From: Marinifilum sp.
GTDB lineage: Bacteria; Bacteroidota; Bacteroidia; Bacteroidales; CG2-30-32-10
Assembly: GCA_020718065.1 (NCBI GenBank)
Contig: DYDE01000008.1
Span: forward strand, 1-58,859
Reading direction: 5' to 3'
Length of the DNA: 58,859 nucleotides
Part shown: positions 27,513 through 39,074 of the stretch, one piece after another
Numbering within the stretch: the first letter of the stretch is position 1
Layout: each line of letters starts with the position of its first letter
Position numbers and translations under genes: made by a program
The notes under the pieces: model-generated
What the model saw: only the letters and a program-made list of their open reading frames with translations
Told to the model about the DNA's origin: nothing
Databases searched by the model: none

Positions 27513-27995
27513 ATGAAAAACCTAAAAGCATTTCTGTCCATAATCTTATCATTATTTAATGGTATGTACAAAATTATGAAAGATGTTGTAGTTCCTGCAA
27601 TCTCTTTTATTCAGTTCATCAAATCGCTGATCGATGATAAAAACTTCAAAACAGCCAAAAACGCCAAAAAAGATGAAGATTTCAACTTTATAGAGTGGCT
27701 TATCGAAAAACTTGGATGGACCGAAACAATGGTTAAAAAGTTTGTAGATGCTTTTATGGTCTCTATAAAAATACTATTACCAGACATTGTTACTGCTGAT
27801 ACTTTTTTTGAAGCATTACGCGAATTCATCGGATACTTAAGAACTCTTGGAGATGCGCAAAAAGCTTTTCTATTTTTCAAATTAGCTTCTATTATGGTTA
27901 TTCATTTAGTTCCCGAAAAGAAACTAAAAGATACAGAAGCTGATTTTATGGTGCAACTGGCTTACACCAAATTAAAATTAACAGATAAGATCTGA
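27513..27995 (+). CDS. first late-block protein, membrane-associated
   Basis: 160 aa with a hydrophobic N-terminus (AFLSIILSLFNGM) and an internal hydrophobic helix. Confidence 0.45.
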   Translation: MKNLKAFLSIILSLFNGMYKIMKDVVVPAISFIQFIKSLIDDKNFKTAKNAKKDEDFNFIEWLIEKLGWTETMVKKFVDAFMVSIKILLPDIVTADTFFEALREFIGYLRTLGDAQKAFLFFKLASIMVIHLVPEKKLKDTEADFMVQLAYTKLKLTDKI

Positions 27996-28033
27996 TCAAT
28001 ACAATTATTTATTAATTAAAAAATCAATACAAT

Positions 28034-28486
28034 ATGAAAAAGTTATTTTTATTATTGTTTGCAATAAGTCTCTTATTCGCAACAAATACACAAGCACAAA
28101 GCCCCACGCCCAAAGTTGGTGAAGATTGGCAGAAAGTTTTTTTCTACAAATACTCAATGGCCACTACTACCAAATCTGTAACGCTTGACTTTTACCCTGA
28201 TCAGAATATTGCATATCTTCAAGTACAAGCAGATTGGTATAGCATGACAGGCGATTCTGCGCAAATAAAAATATATCCGAGTGCCAATGATAGTTTTCCT
28301 AATTCCACACAAATAAATACTCTTAACACTTTAAAGTGGAAAAATGGCAATGGTACTAATATAACGAAATGGGATAAAATAGATGTTTCAAAATATCCTA
28401 TTCGAAAAATTAAAATTACACTTGATACACTCACGGGTATAACAACCGGAAATCTCACCCTTACAGTCAAACCATATTTTAAATAG
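28034..28486 (+). CDS. secreted beta-rich protein
   Basis: Cleavable-looking signal peptide MKKLFLLLFAISLLFATNTQAQ. Confidence 0.5.
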   Translation: MKKLFLLLFAISLLFATNTQAQSPTPKVGEDWQKVFFYKYSMATTTKSVTLDFYPDQNIAYLQVQADWYSMTGDSAQIKIYPSANDSFPNSTQINTLNTLKWKNGNGTNITKWDKIDVSKYPIRKIKITLDTLTGITTGNLTLTVKPYFK

Positions 28487-28514
28487 TTCTTGTTCATAAT
28501 GTCTCAACGGTCGG

Positions 28515-28565
28515 CACCGGAAAGCTGCTAGTTTGCGTCTCTGGCAACTACAGCTTCTCCCGGTG
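28515..28565 (+). other. GC-rich imperfect 51-nt stem-loop in a late intergenic region
   Basis: CACCGG-a-AAGCTG-c-TAGTT / AACTA-CAGCTT-ctc-CCGGTG gives about 17 paired positions. No T-run follows. Confidence 0.6.
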
Positions 28566-28590
28566 TTATTCTAAAACTAAAAAAAACAAA

Positions 28591-29061
28591 ATGGGAAACA
28601 CGGTAAGAAATATTATAATTGGTGGTGGCGTAGTTGCGTTGGGTATTTACTTAAAAAGACTATGGAACATTAAAAACGCTTCCGACAACATTAAGTACCA
28701 AATTATTAATGTTGGCAAACCAACTATAACAGGAGGTCAATTAAAATTAGATGTTGTACTTGCATTCACCAATCCCACCAACCAACCTGTAGATTTAGAA
28801 ACCATATTTCTTGATGTTTCTTTTGCTAATGGAACTCCACTGGCATCAGTAACAAAAACAAATTTTGGAGTAATACAACCAAACAACAGAACTTATATAA
28901 CGCTGCCAATAGAAACCGGTAATCTTACTTTTTTATCAGTAATGAATTTAATAAACCTTATCCGCAATGGGGCACAAGGTTATAAAACTTTATTCATAAA
29001 AGGAAATTACAGGGCTGAAGGTTTCCTGCAAACTATTGAAGAAAACATTGATCTTTTTTAA
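28591..29061 (+). CDS. N-terminally anchored LEA_2/WHy-like beta-sandwich protein
   Basis: TM helix (IIIGGGVVALGIYL), then LKLDVVLAFTNPTNQPVDLETIFLDVSFANGTPLA, which resembles the LEA_2 NPN motif region. Confidence 0.4.
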   Translation: MGNTVRNIIIGGGVVALGIYLKRLWNIKNASDNIKYQIINVGKPTITGGQLKLDVVLAFTNPTNQPVDLETIFLDVSFANGTPLASVTKTNFGVIQPNNRTYITLPIETGNLTFLSVMNLINLIRNGAQGYKTLFIKGNYRAEGFLQTIEENIDLF

Positions 29062-29062
29062 T

Positions 29063-36936: not shown

Positions 36937-36996
36937 CACTGCTAGGAATAGGTTTAGGTATTGGAATTATAATAAAACTATTTAATAGTTAAATAT

Positions 36997-37281
36997 ATGA
37001 TAAGCAATCAATCCCAAATAGATGTAATTACAACCGGAGCCGATGATGAAGAAACCGGAGTTGAAAGCAATTGCAACTCAATTTCTTTTATAAACAACGG
37101 TACACAAGATTGTTGGATTTACAATGAAAATTCAGATGAATTAAAACTTCCATCAGGCTCATCAATAAGTTTTACTTGTCAAAATGATACAAATTTAATA
37201 GATACCTGGTTTTGGTATTTCAATAGCAGTACCGGAGCTGAACTCTCAATAATAAGACAATTAGTAGGTAAACAAGATTAA
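36997..37281 (+). CDS. small beta-rich late protein
   Basis: A 94-aa ORF with no motif. Confidence 0.45.
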   Translation: MISNQSQIDVITTGADDEETGVESNCNSISFINNGTQDCWIYNENSDELKLPSGSSISFTCQNDTNLIDTWFWYFNSSTGAELSIIRQLVGKQD

Positions 37282-37286
37282 TCGTT

Positions 37287-38132
37287 ATGGGAATCGAATT
37301 CAAAAAAGCTTCAGCAGCAAGTCCTTTTACTTCCTATATTCAAAATCTTGGATATCAACAGGGAATTATAACTTCAGCTGTTAGAACTTATGGACCTGTT
37401 TATGCTAATATATATGTTACAGAAGCTGCTTCTGTAACAGAGTTAACTTTAACAGCTACTATTAAATTTGGAACTCCAGTTATTGTTTGCCACTTCACCT
37501 GCGCTGCAGGTAAAACGCCTTTACAAATGGCAACTTTAATTTATAATGAAATTAATGCAAATACAGGAACAACGGAATTTTCTGCTTATCTTAATGGTAC
37601 TACCGTAATCGTTGTTACAAGTAATGTTCTATATGATGGAACATACATGGAACTTGAAGCGGGTGCCGTTCATAATATAACATATACTTATCTTAATGCT
37701 GGAAACAATGGTTATACCATTGTTATAGATAATGCCAGTCCTACTCAATCTGAGTACGACTATAGCAACATCGCATTAATGGGAAAAGATTTTACTTGCA
37801 CTGGAGTGGTCAGTGATGTGCAACCAGATATAGCACATCCCGGACAATATATTATAAATTTATCTTGCCTATTAGAAAATGTAACCGGATCCGATATCCC
37901 TGAAATTGATGATGATCTTATTTGTAGATACAATTCTATAGATGTTACTCACAATCTAAATTCTTCTGATATATATTGGATTGTATCAAATGAAGTTACT
38001 CTTGGTGAATTTGTTGAAAGAAATTACAGTAGCGAGAAAAAAATAGCTGATGATGGAACTTTCACATTAAATTCATTCTCAGTCACAGAATCATATTATC
38101 AAAGTCGTATAATCGTTTTTAAAGAAAATTAA
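37287..38132 (+). CDS. late protein (spike / receptor-binding candidate)
   Basis: 281 aa, T/N/S/Y-rich beta-type composition, last large ORF before the lysis-type genes. Confidence 0.3.
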   Translation: MGIEFKKASAASPFTSYIQNLGYQQGIITSAVRTYGPVYANIYVTEAASVTELTLTATIKFGTPVIVCHFTCAAGKTPLQMATLIYNEINANTGTTEFSAYLNGTTVIVVTSNVLYDGTYMELEAGAVHNITYTYLNAGNNGYTIVIDNASPTQSEYDYSNIALMGKDFTCTGVVSDVQPDIAHPGQYIINLSCLLENVTGSDIPEIDDDLICRYNSIDVTHNLNSSDIYWIVSNEVTLGEFVERNYSSEKKIADDGTFTLNSFSVTESYYQSRIIVFKEN

Positions 38133-38135
38133 CAT

Positions 38136-38387
38136 ATGAAAACAAAAAGCCCTTTATACAAATTAAATTTCTTGGATATCCTTTTTGGGATCATCATCGC
38201 TTTTGTTGTTGGATCTGCTACAGCTCTTTACGACTTTTTACAAAACAATCACAATTTCAATCAATTGGATTGGGGATTAATTTTAGGTGCAGGAGCTGGT
38301 CCTGCTGTTCTTTTTTTAATAAATCAATTTACCAGGAATAAAAATTACGAACTATTTAAGAAAGATCAGGATGAAAAGAATAATTAA
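38136..38387 (+). CDS. holin-like two-TM protein
   Basis: 83 aa with two TM helices and a charged C-terminal tail (KKDQDEKNN). Confidence 0.45.
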   Translation: MKTKSPLYKLNFLDILFGIIIAFVVGSATALYDFLQNNHNFNQLDWGLILGAGAGPAVLFLINQFTRNKNYELFKKDQDEKNN

Positions 38388-38670
38388 CTACCTAGCTGTA
38401 TTGACTATCCCACCTAGCTTAACAATTAATATTACCCGACTTTTAGAATATAAGGATTTCATCAGTTTTGTTTTTACCGTTTCAATTTCTATTATTGCGT
38501 TACTTACTGGTATTATCGCTTATAAACACTATAAAATTAAAAAAGAAATGGCTCAAATTGAACTCGATCAGAAAAAAGAAGAATTGAAACAAAAAAAAGA
38601 AGATCGGGAAAAAAAAGAAAAAGAACCGACGGCCGGTACAGGCTTTTTTAAAAACAATATAATCAAATGA
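38371..38670 (+). CDS. membrane protein with a charged coiled-coil tail
   Basis: Two hydrophobic helices followed by EMAQIELDQKKEELKQKKEDREKKEKE. Confidence 0.4.
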   Translation: MKRIINYLAVLTIPPSLTINITRLLEYKDFISFVFTVSISIIALLTGIIAYKHYKIKKEMAQIELDQKKEELKQKKEDREKKEKEPTAGTGFFKNNIIK

Positions 38671-39074
38671 AATCATCAAGTATATTTTGGGGAGTTGCTG
38701 CAGTGTTTGCAGTAGATTTTTTAATTGCCAAAGCAAATAAGATCCCCACAATAACATATAAAGAAAAATTACCTTATAATTATAATGCTATAACAATTCC
38801 ACCTTTTGGCATAAAAATTCAAAACGAAGATAAAAACAATCAACGCTTACTAGATCATGAATTAACTCATTGGCAACAATATCGGAAAACAGGTGCAATA
38901 CTATATTACTTAAGATATGGAACTGAAAAATTATTATTCGGTTATGATAAAATGCCAATGGAAATTGAAGCAAGAAAAAAAGCTGGTGAAAACAATTATT
39001 GCAGTACTAATTATACCCAATCTGTAAGAAATGGAACTGCAAAAACCGTTTATGACAAAAAATTCAGAACATAA
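38667..39074 (+). CDS. membrane-anchored HExxH zinc-metallopeptidase-like protein
   Basis: N-terminal anchor IFWGVAAVFAVDFLIA and the HELTH motif (LDHELTHWQQY), with a downstream Glu (MEIEARKK). Confidence 0.4.
   Translation: MKSSSIFWGVAAVFAVDFLIAKANKIPTITYKEKLPYNYNAITIPPFGIKIQNEDKNNQRLLDHELTHWQQYRKTGAILYYLRYGTEKLLFGYDKMPMEIEARKKAGENNYCSTNYTQSVRNGTAKTVYDKKFRT

Follow-up and report, generated by a model that had tools for sequence, protein, structure and literature searches.

The genes between positions 27513 and 39074 of the window, the 58,859-nt stretch of DNA that we analysed, form the late module of a prophage at a tRNA-Ala gene of an uncultured Bacteroidales bacterium. They are probably the genes with which a temperate virus of 28.65 kb assembles its virions and lyses the cell; that virus would have no tail, and an icosahedral capsid built from jelly-roll proteins. 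The lineage of tailless jelly-roll-capsid viruses is real, and undescribed. An earlier, sequence-only reading of the same DNA had proposed much the same thing—a temperate, tailless, PRD1/PM2-type membrane-containing virus of a Bacteroidota host, with no clean fit to any described family—and its proposal is supported by the capsid fold, by a match to the phage SSIP-1, and by a GroEL that points to a Bacteroidales-like host. It gains this support because one late protein, g08, models as a double jelly-roll (DJR) and has DJR major capsid proteins (MCPs) as its best Foldseek matches. All of the sequences are metagenomic.

From repeat to repeat, the prophage measures 28,653 bp. A 19-nt direct repeat, ATTGTGGAGAATAACGGAA, forms its left boundary (attL, 11727–11745) and is matched exactly at its right (attR, 40380–40398), where it overlaps the 3' end of the integration target, tRNA-Ala(GGC) (40383–40457, minus strand; ARAGORN, Rfam). 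Also on the minus strand are the genes for a tyrosine integrase, with Phage_integrase and SAM_5-type N-terminal domains (39115–40272; Pfam), and for a CI-like HTH repressor (12065–12466; Pfam), from which a Cro-like HTH gene (12615–12902) diverges. A primase-helicase encoded on the plus strand (16129–19161; Pfam, motif scan) has a CHC2 zinc finger and a P-loop, GRSGKS, which is, as had been claimed, the sole P-loop/NTPase motif of the element. Methylases are found among the element's genes, too, besides the integrase, the CI/Cro-like switch, the primase-helicase and the lysin.

The late module comprises 19 ORFs, g01 to g19, all on the plus strand and tightly packed, with starts and lengths as originally listed. 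The gaps between them are small, six of them 5 nt or less, and overlaps, of 8, 17 and 4 nt, occur at three junctions; only g18/g19 is of the ATGA type, and so the 'many' such overlaps described earlier were an overstatement. The largest ORF, g04, starts with the ATG at 29063 to give 603 aa, the length first reported, or with an upstream TTG to give 612 aa. Every absence that the sequence-only reading had remarked upon held up: no terminase, portal, HK97 capsid, tail, tape-measure or FtsK/HerA protein was matched in Pfam, PHROGs or NCBIfam, no Walker A motif was found by a scan of the 19 ORFs, no fibre-like repeats were found by Tandem Repeats Finder, and no late ORF encodes a soluble protein of 400–700 aa, the size of a TerL or a portal. 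Its 'about 10' membrane-type products come to approximately seven firm and three soft cases. By a strict Kyte-Doolittle scan, g04 and g05 have C-terminal anchors, g13 and g17 have two TM segments each, g18 and g19 have TM segments as well, and g01 is marginal; inspection by eye adds a signal peptide in g02 and weaker hydrophobic stretches, rich in Gly, in g03 and g06.

The main evidence for a jelly-roll capsid comes from g08 (32689–33513; 274 aa), which consists of two homologous domains of ~122 aa each. Its AlphaFold2 (AF2) model (pLDDT 85, pTM 0.84) retrieves from the PDB, by Foldseek, PBCV-1 Vp54 (6e-8), SGIV, PR772/PRD1 P3, PM2 P2 and D13, with TM-scores to the solved DJR MCPs that are moderate (0.4–0.5); PHM and PNGase F, which are known DJR proteins of cells, are returned with similar scores. 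From BFVD it retrieves NCLDV MCPs and a 256-aa protein, I1ZBI0 (TM 0.60/0.64). The internal duplication noticed at the outset is strongly confirmed: hhalign aligns the N-terminal half with the C-terminal half at 99.5% (E 4e-23), and an HMM built from single-domain relatives alone matches both halves in 15 of 15 two-domain proteins. Some syntenic relatives have, at the position of g08, a single unfused domain of ~125 aa. By its sequence, then, g08 is a jelly-roll domain of ~122 aa duplicated in tandem, and, judged by its model, it is predicted to have the DJR fold of the PRD1, PM2 and PBCV-1 capsid proteins. The only residues conserved in the g08 family are two glycines, and hence it carries no catalytic signature.

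The neighbouring protein, g07 (31841–32614; 257 aa), is the best conserved of the late proteins, with homologues in all of the relatives. Its AF2 model (pLDDT 78) has a helical N-terminal arm (residues 17–84) followed by an 8-stranded single jelly-roll (88–255), for which the best structural matches, all of them weak, are the capsid proteins of SPV1, P23-77 and SH1 (E from 1e-3 to ~4e-2, TM 0.3–0.4). It is a candidate co-major capsid protein or penton; g09 may conceivably be the penton, instead. The two late proteins modelled, out of 19, are g07 and g08; the alignments behind the models were shallow, with 13 sequences in one and 10 in the other, and both proteins model as jelly-rolls, not HK97 folds. 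Immediately after the g07 stop codon is a GC-rich hairpin with a T-run (32627–32654, plus strand), and a terminator-like hairpin occurs 3' of g07 in 10 of the 10 loci examined, its position kept but its sequence varying. A second such hairpin follows g12 (35335–35362, plus strand), as one also does in L031 and L032, two of the related loci.

A third protein, g04 (29063–30874), has an N-terminal transglutaminase-like Cys-His-Asp domain in which C133, H171 and D182 are invariant, a Lys-rich helical middle, and a C-terminal TM anchor. Among its relatives, five of nine contain DUF553 and two of nine MuF_C. Its sole match among GenBank phages is gp34, a structural protein of SSIP-1 (hmmsearch 9e-17; tblastn 2e-6), to which it is homologous; g04 is a putative virion protein of polyvalent type. 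Some 15 relatives share the core module, at 25–78% protein identity. Among them, g04, g07 and g08 are present in almost all loci of sufficient length, and g03, g06, g10, g12 and g13 are detected in the closer relatives only. Replication genes differ from one to another: L038 and L040 have a Rep_1-like protein and an SSB, which suggests rolling-circle replication, and L044 and one IMG/VR locus have a DnaG-type primase.

The remaining late proteins are a mixed company. At the left end of the module are g01 (27513–27995; 160 aa), basic, with one marginal hydrophobic segment, and g02 (28034–28486; 150 aa), with its N-terminal signal peptide, both of which were detected in close relatives alone. 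A core gene of the family, g03 (28591–29061; 156 aa), combines an N-terminal hydrophobic segment with a LEA_2-like beta-sandwich (Pfam LEA_2, 2.7e-5) and is kept in L031–L033, L038, L040 and L128. The tail-anchored membrane protein g05 (30879–31226; 115 aa) has the same C-terminus as g04, WGW...G...G...K/R, and g06 (31270–31782; 170 aa), Gly-rich, hydrophobic and also a core gene, is a candidate internal-membrane protein. Soluble g09 (33518–33928; 136 aa), kept within the DJR-type clade, is a candidate vertex or minor capsid protein. The acidic, putatively coiled-coil protein pointed out earlier is g10 (33940–34800; 286 aa; pI 5.0), its middle helical and charged; it is a candidate scaffold or size-determining protein, and is kept in L031–L034, L038 and L040. 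After g11 (34793–35032; 79 aa), small and conserved, comes the Lys-rich peptide that had also been singled out, g12 (35068–35316; 82 aa; 35% Lys+Arg, pI 10.5), a candidate DNA-condensing protein. With a soluble N-terminal domain and two TM helices, g13 (35392–36378; 328 aa) sits before the lysin in L031–L034, L038 and L040. That lysin, g14 (36382–36936; 184 aa), is the SLT-type lytic transglycosylase recognized from the start; it matches PHROG 4928 at 1.6e-37, PHROG 196 at 2e-36 and Pfam SLT just above its cutoff, and has an EF-hand-like C-terminal motif. Then come g15 (36997–37281; 94 aa), acidic (pI 4.1), and g16 (37287–38132; 281 aa), acidic, a candidate spike or receptor-binding protein that diverges fast even among close relatives (33 bits to L031, versus 200–500 bits for neighbouring genes). 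Last are g17 (38136–38387; 83 aa), a holin-like or membrane protein with two TM helices; g18 (38371–38670; 99 aa), with one TM helix and a charged tail; and g19 (38667–39074; 135 aa), with an N-terminal TM helix, an HExxH motif and a weak signal of an eCIS_core/DUF4157-type metallopeptidase (PHROG 37302 at 4e-7; Pfam eCIS_core, 0.0023).

Lysin aside, SSIP-1 is the only GenBank phage similar in sequence to any late protein, through the match of gp34 to the transglutaminase-like domain of g04. It is a tailless phage with an internal membrane, and the Salisaeta that it infects has been placed in the Bacteroidetes. Its run of gp46 (211 aa), gp47 (256 aa) and gp48 (132 aa) parallels g07, g08 and g09 by length, and gp47 has the same length as I1ZBI0, the best BFVD structural match of g08 and possibly the same protein; no sequence similarity to g07, g08 or the other late proteins was detected. 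SSIP-1 is also larger, 43.8 kb; one of its structural proteins is 2319 aa long, and its structural block encodes an AAA_25 ATPase (gp40), whereas the prophage is temperate, 28.65 kb, and without the AAA_25 ATPase. The classical membrane-containing DJR phages, PRD1 (Tectiviridae) and PM2 (Corticoviridae), share with the prophage the DJR fold, numerous small membrane proteins and a lytic transglycosylase, and PM2 P2 is, like g08, a compact MCP of ~270 aa; both, however, encode a packaging ATPase of the FtsK/HerA type. The two barrels of the PRD1 and PM2 MCPs are not known to resemble one another in sequence, whereas the halves of g08 recognisably do.

Finnlakeviridae (Flavobacterium FLiP, and PhiCjT23, which is temperate) infect Bacteroidota and combine a DJR capsid protein with an internal membrane and a virion lytic enzyme, but have no packaging ATPase (PMC9719478, PMC5894146). 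The prophage, temperate like PhiCjT23, resembles them and the FLiP group (Yutin et al. 2018) in host, DJR capsid protein, probable internal membrane, lytic enzyme and lack of a packaging ATPase, and, through L038 and L040, in the Rep_1-like protein and SSB. Finnlakeviridae differ in having ssDNA genomes of 7.6–9.2 kb (up to 17 kb in the group) and an RCR Rep, against 28.65 kb and a primase-helicase here; the g08 profile showed no similarity to the FLiP MCP, and iterative search reached no FLiP ORF. The small DJR proviruses of the 'Odin group' (Yutin et al. 2018) are dsDNA and likewise lack a packaging ATPase (PMC5894146); no sequence link to them was seen. Adjacent jelly-roll capsid genes, as here, occur in Helvetiavirae (Thermus phage P23-77, SH1, HHIV-2; now realm Singelaviria) and Portogloboviridae (SPV1), and relatives in which the unfused g08 domain lies beside g07 resemble the two-SJR-MCP layout. 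In the prophage, by contrast, the barrels of one of the two proteins are fused into a double one. Helvetiaviruses, which infect Thermus and archaea, have a packaging ATPase. SPV1 has none (PMC8812541).

Conceivably, though we think it unlikely, packaging is active, driven by a motor other than a dedicated late-gene ATPase: the SF3-type domain of the primase-helicase (cf. parvovirus Rep), a host FtsK-type translocase, or the ATPase of a co-resident helper virus. The genome exceeds the 9–17 kb of known ATPase-less DJR viruses (PMC5894146), the only P-loop is that of the primase-helicase, and SSIP-1 has an ATPase within its structural block. Yet the same capsid module is accompanied in relatives by unrelated replication genes, so that a replication-protein motor would not be conserved, and no candidate motor lies near the module, nor any consistently placed Walker A in the conserved late genes, in any relative found. 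The missing hallmark ATPase might also signify a helper-dependent satellite, or a decaying prophage that has lost it, but this we regard as quite improbable: none of the 19 tightly packed late ORFs is broken, the two att copies do not differ, and for capsid, lysis, repressor, integrase and replication the element carries genes of its own. The ATPase-less arrangement is found again in ~15 independent loci at 25–78% protein identity, which implies purifying selection on a complete module; conservation across such distant lineages also disfavours the satellite and secretion-island options that the sequence-only reading had kept in view.

A non-viral island—a vesicle, secretion or surface-glycan system in which g08 is a cellular-type DJR carbohydrate-active protein (PNGase F, PHM, DUF2961)—would suit the numerous membrane proteins and the Foldseek scores of PHM and PNGase F, but it is very improbable given the lack of a catalytic signature in g08, the att-flanked prophage setting, and a sole cultured match that is an SSIP-1 virion protein. 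Least credible is a tailed prophage of the ordinary kind, so divergent that its TerL, portal and HK97 capsid went undetected, a reading that is largely refuted already. MuF_C was first described in a tailed-phage head protein, and transglycosylase domains like that of g14 are common in tailed-phage baseplate hubs. Against this, no late ORF encodes a soluble protein of the size expected or has a Walker A, the models of the two best-conserved late proteins show jelly-rolls and not HK97, the 27 IMG/VR loci with the transglycosylase have nothing else of the module, and the relatives include five IMG/VR viral contigs without tailed-phage genes, in whose 57 ORFs Pfam found no terminase, portal or tail protein.

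If the module does build a tailless jelly-roll virion, g07 and g08 would jointly form its shell, serving both as major capsid proteins, an arrangement reported for SSIP-1 and P23-77, or else as MCP and penton. Beneath it would lie an internal membrane holding g03, g05, g06, g13, g17 and g18 together with the g04 tail anchor, and g16, acidic and fast-evolving, would be the spike. Rather than being pumped into a preformed shell, the DNA, condensed by g12, would have membrane and capsid co-assemble around it, a route already suggested for FLiP, the Odin group and SPV1; g04 would be an effector that the virion carries and delivers on entry, and g14 would open the peptidoglycan at entry, lysis, or both. 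A cryptic motor of non-P-loop type may conceivably be hidden among the other 17 late proteins. Jelly-roll viruses without a packaging ATPase have been described already (PMC5894146, PMC8812541), and at 28.6 kb this genome is about twice as large as that of the largest such DJR virus so far reported. The case bears on two matters: the possible making, by viruses, of DJR capsid proteins out of single jelly-rolls, and packaging without an ATPase.

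The late module of the element consists of 19 genes, all on the + strand (27513-39074), whose products we call g01-g19 in gene order. Their starts and sizes agree with those of the sequence-only reading, including the largest, g04, which is 603 aa long with its ATG at 29063. The genes are tightly packed, as that reading described, with six gaps of 5 nt or less, but its 'many' ATGA overlaps were overstated: there are three overlapping pairs (8, 17 and 4 nt), just one of them of the ATGA type. Its other observations on this module stand. None of the late ORFs has a Walker A motif, and the GRSGKS of the primase-helicase is the sole P-loop in the element; no fibre-like tandem repeats were found in the module; and none of the 19 proteins matches a terminase, portal, HK97 capsid, tail, tape-measure or FtsK/HerA protein in Pfam, PHROGs or NCBIfam. 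All that these libraries return for the 19 is a transglycosylase match, together with weak LEA_2, DUF553 and HExxH signals. By hydropathy, g04 and g05 have C-terminal membrane anchors, and g13, g17, g18 and g19 have membrane segments, with a weak one in g01; inspection by eye adds a signal peptide in g02 and softer hydrophobic stretches in g03 and g06. TM segments or anchors are thus present in 7-10 of the 19 products, an indirect sign of a possible internal membrane. The C-terminal ends of g04 (30790-30874) and g05 (31140-31226) share the motif P-x-WGW-x-IG...G...G-...-K/R cluster, which the homologues of g04 also keep (A4 consensus) and which could serve to target or sort membrane proteins of the virion.

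Two copies of an exact 19-nt direct repeat, ATTGTGGAGAATAACGGAA, at 11727-11745 and 40380-40398, delimit an element of 28,653 bp, the right copy being the 3' end of a tRNA-Ala(GGC). A divergent pair of CI/Cro-like HTH proteins is encoded at the left end and a tyrosine integrase at the right, and the element also encodes a CHC2 primase-helicase, two adenine methylases, a DUF5131 protein, a DUF1643 protein and an RNase H-like exonuclease. The methylases (N6-adenine, Dam, D12 class), the DUF5131 (Gp37/Gp68-like) and the DUF1643 genes occupy 19488-19985, 20444-21106, 21126-21713 and 21714-22403 of the early region, and may be an anti-restriction or DNA-modification cluster. Several early genes are preceded by short repeats that comprise a leader and start codon, 77-89% identical (23331-23390 and 23568-23627; 20138-20172 and 20426-20460; 22402-22436 and 23363-23397); the genes may have signals for translation or transcription in common here, or the repeats may be left over from gene duplication in this region. 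The GroEL encoded beside the element shares up to 84% identity with GroEL proteins from uncultured Bacteroidales MAGs. Every sequence in our dataset is metagenomic, and copies of the window sequence occur in a single groundwater metagenome only (source samples ERR628383).

One late protein, g08 (274 aa, 32689-33513), is internally duplicated. A word-indexed protein search with g08 returned only g08 itself; an exhaustive HMMER search recovered 17 relatives that the former missed. Fold models cover g07 and g08. That of g08 (AlphaFold2, from a shallow alignment of 13 sequences) is all-beta and confident, with pLDDT 85 and pTM 0.84, and comprises nine strands in the N-terminal half followed by an eight-stranded C-terminal barrel. 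Its top Foldseek matches in the PDB are double jelly-roll (DJR) major capsid proteins (MCPs)—PBCV-1 Vp54, SGIV, PR772/PRD1 P3, PM2 P2 and vaccinia D13—all with a probability of 1.00. PHM and PNGase F, two cellular proteins with a DJR fold, score alongside these viral MCPs; their structural kinship with DJR capsid proteins is known (PMC8812541). Among viral models in BFVD, the best superposition is with I1ZBI0, a viral protein of 256 aa (TM 0.60/0.64). At the level of the fold, then, g08 is predicted to be a DJR MCP, and no HK97 capsid protein appears among the top matches of either of the two modelled proteins.

The halves of g08 are homologous to each other in sequence (hhalign 99.5%, E 4e-23, for the N versus the C halves of the family), and a profile made from single-domain relatives of ~120 aa alone matches both halves in 15 of 15 two-domain members. 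These single-domain forms are found in place: at three related loci, L034, L038 and L040, the syntenic g08 gene encodes one domain of ~125 aa. In a neighbor-joining (NJ) tree of the domains, most N halves lie apart from C halves, and this sequence pattern suggests that the halves stem from one old duplication. The relative P0012 departs from the pattern, its halves being mutual nearest neighbours with 38% identity, and hints at repeated, recent fusions; the same tree also pairs the halves of P0010 and P0014. Bootstrap support for the three pairings is just 52%, 11% and 13%, respectively, and we therefore hold repeated duplication to be tentative. By sequence, the g08 domain has no homologue in the barrel of g07, in g09, in g16 or in the 139-151-aa proteins encoded 3' of single-domain g08. 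A distant relative, L045, encodes two tandem two-domain paralogues of g08 (10001-10756 and 10753-11505), followed by a protein weakly matching Phage_cement_2 and then by a 430-aa beta-helix protein with faint Pfam matches; the L045 lineage may thus have duplicated its capsid gene further and have a spike of the depolymerase type.

The neighbouring protein g07 (257 aa, 31841-32614) is the best conserved of the late module, with 78, 65, 40 and 28% identity to successive relatives. Its model (pLDDT 78, again from a shallow alignment) comprises a helical arm, residues 17-84, and an eight-stranded sandwich, residues 88-255, and the sandwich finds weak but consistent Foldseek matches to single jelly-roll (SJR) capsid proteins: SPV1 (E 1e-3), P23-77 VP16/VP17 and SH1. 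Directly 3' of the g07 stop codon, at 32627-32654, is a GC-rich hairpin with a T-run. A hairpin occurs at this point in 10 of the 10 loci compared (the window, L031-L034, L038, L040, L042, L044 and L045), although its sequence is lineage-specific; a second hairpin, 3' of g12 at 35335-35362, is found in the window, L031 and L032. Judged by sequence, the hairpins resemble conserved terminators or attenuators through which the dosage of genes in the late operon would be set. The one after g07 would result in high g07 dosage, as would suit a major structural protein, and high conservation and the downstream hairpin together suggest that g07, whose single jelly-roll would also suit a penton, may be a major component.

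Local profile searches place g07 and g08 in a conserved gene order. The core g03, g04, g06, g07, g08, g10, g11/g12, g13, followed by the lysin, is present in L031-L034, L038 and L040, and the shorter core g04-(g06)-g07-g08 in L042, L044 and L045. The core g04-g07-g08 also occurs in five viral contigs from IMG/VR, 39-50 kb long; Pfam, run on 57 of their ORFs, shows primase, recombinase, methylases and lysins, and nothing that matches a terminase, portal, HK97 capsid or tail protein. Replication genes vary from lineage to lineage: primase-helicase in the window, a Rep_1-like protein plus SSB in L038 (3882-5773) and L040 (3881-5795), and a DnaG-type primase in L044, which lies in a 6.5-Mb genome, and in one IMG/VR locus. 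Such exchange of replication modules is the modular pattern expected of viruses. The Rep_1 matches, at 27-29 bits, are below the Pfam cutoff, and the L038 and L040 elements span ~15 kb or less, as estimated from their gene blocks; these distant relatives may use rolling-circle replication, and ssDNA genomes are even conceivable for them, which would echo FLiP. T9SS sorting domains in the host genes adjoining L033 and L040 lead us to take those hosts as Bacteroidota. One IMG/VR contig with homologues of g03 and g04 (L128) encodes an RVT_1 reverse transcriptase ~1.7 kb upstream (1622-2590; 1.3e-18), which may belong to a retron or a diversity-generating element. Other searches were blank: tblastn of g07, g08 and one IMG/VR g07 homologue against GenBank phages, pattern scans of IMG/VR with g08 and the g07 alignment, and scans with the g07 alignment of GTDB representative genomes and JGI metagenome contigs.

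The largest late protein, g04 (29063-30874), links the element to a known virus. In the g04 family, the catalytic triad Cys133, His171 and Asp182 is invariant, within a transglutaminase-like (DUF553) domain; the proteins also have a middle part rich in Lys and, at the C-terminus, a TM anchor. One relative, at 70% identity, has gained a MuF_C domain; 'polyvalent' virion proteins reportedly behave in this way, with exchangeable payloads (described by Iyer et al. in 2017). Among 50,697 GenBank phage records, the N-terminal domain of g04 finds one virus only, SSIP-1 (Salisaeta icosahedral phage 1), by way of gp34 (tblastn 2e-6, hmmsearch 9e-17), which is recorded in GenBank as just a structural protein and is here seen to be transglutaminase-like. 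SSIP-1 is tailless and icosahedral, with an internal membrane, and two types of major capsid protein are reported for it (PMC6356626, PMC6260650). Its gp46, gp47 and gp48 (211, 256 and 132 aa) parallel g07, g08 and g09 in length, and gp47 is as long as I1ZBI0 and may be that protein, in which case g08, to judge from its model, would possibly be the structural counterpart of gp47. There is no sequence link between these two sets of three proteins: hhalign detects no similarity between g08 and gp47, or between g07 and gp46, nor is there one from g10 or g13 to SSIP-1. Iterative jackhmmer toward SSIP-1 and FLiP reached them with no protein except g04, and the family profiles of g10, g13 and g04 found no significant match among PDB sequences. 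SSIP-1 also differs in having, within its structural block, an AAA_25/KaiC-like protein, gp40 (JN880423, 24775-25737), with the Walker A GEKGSGKS, a candidate packaging ATPase on the strength of motif and domain; the window element has none. Unclassified SSIP-1 is the nearest known virus to the element, with one virion protein domain in common.

The smaller late proteins fill in parts of the picture. g14 (36382-36936) is an SLT transglycosylase with an EF-hand-like calcium-binding motif at residues 143-162, sub-threshold to several Pfam EF-hand models, and unusual in a phage lysin. As a query, it finds 27 IMG/VR loci that have nothing else of the late module in common, and we thus regard it as a promiscuous domain. 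g12 is 35% Lys+Arg, and g16 diverges far faster than its neighbours. g19 (38667-39074), the last gene of the operon, present in the closest relatives only, encodes a small protein that begins with a TM helix and contains HExxH (PHROG 37302, and a weak eCIS_core/DUF4157 signal); it may be an accessory metallopeptidase or moron.

To judge from its genes, the element would work like an internal-membrane virus of the PRD1/PM2/FLiP/SSIP-1 type, and yet it fits none of the established groups. All hallmarks of Caudoviricetes are absent. The classical Bamfordvirae phages have a packaging ATPase, and the element has none; Helvetiavirae have two adjacent SJR MCP genes plus such an ATPase, whereas in the element the barrel of g08 is fused and the ATPase is, again, absent. 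(In L034, L038 and L040, the SJR protein g07 adjoins a single-domain g08.) From Finnlakeviridae it differs in MCP—the g08 profile aligns with the FLiP MCP at an hhalign probability of 0.2%, and jackhmmer recruits no FLiP ORF—and in genome size and replication module, the FLiP group having small circular ssDNA genomes with an RCR Rep, and the element 28.65 kb with a primase-helicase. The missing FtsK/HerA ATPase, already remarked upon from the sequence, proves to be a wider trait: neither the window nor the late module of any relative examined has it beside the MCP, and the conserved late genes of the relatives are likewise devoid of Walker A motifs. In published surveys, the only DJR viruses without a packaging ATPase belong to two groups, FLiP (with ssDNA of at most 17 kb) and Odin (with small genomes), for which assembly of the capsid around the genome has been proposed (PMC5894146); SPV1 is the equivalent case among SJR viruses (PMC8812541). 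The window element would be considerably larger than any of these.

How might such a virus assemble? Our analysis shows the folds, the duplication, the synteny, the hairpin, the catalytic triad, the lysin and the lack of a P-loop. Beyond these, we infer that the icosahedral shell would be built of g07 and g08, whether as two major proteins in the style of SSIP-1 and P23-77, or as MCP and vertex protein, and that the shell would enclose a membrane holding g03, g05, g06, g13, g17, g18 and the anchor of g04. The basic g12 would condense the DNA, which would be enclosed through co-assembly rather than pumped in, with g10 acting as a scaffold or size-determining protein. Its rapid divergence makes g16 the putative spike, and g14, perhaps with g13, would open the cell wall at entry, at lysis, or at both.

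Other interpretations deserve consideration. It is possible that the DNA is pumped after all, by an unconventional motor recruited from the replication helicase, the host FtsK or a helper virus; against the helicase is the swapping of replication modules between relatives. Dependence on a helper, or decay, would explain a missing ATPase too, but we think it unlikely that the element is a satellite or a defective prophage: it has intact ORFs and identical att repeats, its layout without an ATPase is met again in distant lineages, and it has jelly-roll capsid and lysis genes of its own, at odds with satellites of the PICI or P4 kind.

A merely divergent tailed phage is effectively excluded. The transglycosylase domain, which is also found in baseplate hubs, is the one tail-gene match; there is no long ORF and no fibre repeat. 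No portal or TerL is matched, the late ORFs include neither a Walker A motif nor a soluble protein of 400-700 aa, and the only one above 350 aa, g04, is transglutaminase-like and tail-anchored. The two best-conserved late proteins, g07 and g08, model as jelly-rolls, instead. That jelly-rolls are also found in enzymes—PHM and PNGase F being the cases in point—raises the idea of a non-viral island encoding a DJR enzyme; we consider this unlikely, since the g08 family lacks a catalytic signature and the surroundings are those of a prophage. An internal-membrane virus that encloses its DNA by co-assembly is the reading we prefer.

Tailless, membrane-containing phages are badly under-sampled and missed by sequence tools, and Bacteroidales are a major environmental and gut clade. 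Lysin apart, the late module yields few matches in Pfam, PHROGs and NCBIfam, all weak or sub-threshold, and the element points to a set of Bacteroidales proviruses that current pipelines do not recognize. At 28.65 kb and without a packaging NTPase, it tests how much DNA co-assembly can enclose, and its genome and those of its kin would, if our reading is true, be the largest assembled without a packaging ATPase. The polyvalent-protein theme, so far one of tailed phages and conjugative elements, is extended to a tailless virus by g04, a membrane-anchored protein of variable payload (transglutaminase-like, in some cases joined by MuF_C).

There is somewhat less than an even chance, we think, that this one virus family displays a capsid protein in passage from one jelly-roll to two. 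The idea comes from sequence comparison: syntenic orthologues come in two forms, one a lone barrel of ~125 aa and the other two barrels fused, the halves of which are still homologous. The 2025 split of Bamfordvirae and Helvetiavirae into separate realms set aside the older duplication hypothesis. The origin of DJR MCPs is debated, between duplication of a viral SJR protein and capture of a cellular double-barrel protein, and the split into Varidnaviria and Singelaviria rests on capture (PMC8812541, PMC12714852). Fused and unfused barrels with recognizable halves in one family are a natural test of that origin, and their coexistence bears directly on the argument over Varidnaviria and Singelaviria (PMC8812541, PMC12714852). 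If proteins of the g08 type do form the capsomers of the shell, then the doubling of an SJR gene within a virus can give rise to a DJR capsid protein, and this family, perhaps with SSIP-1, would be a third independent lineage of jelly-roll capsids.
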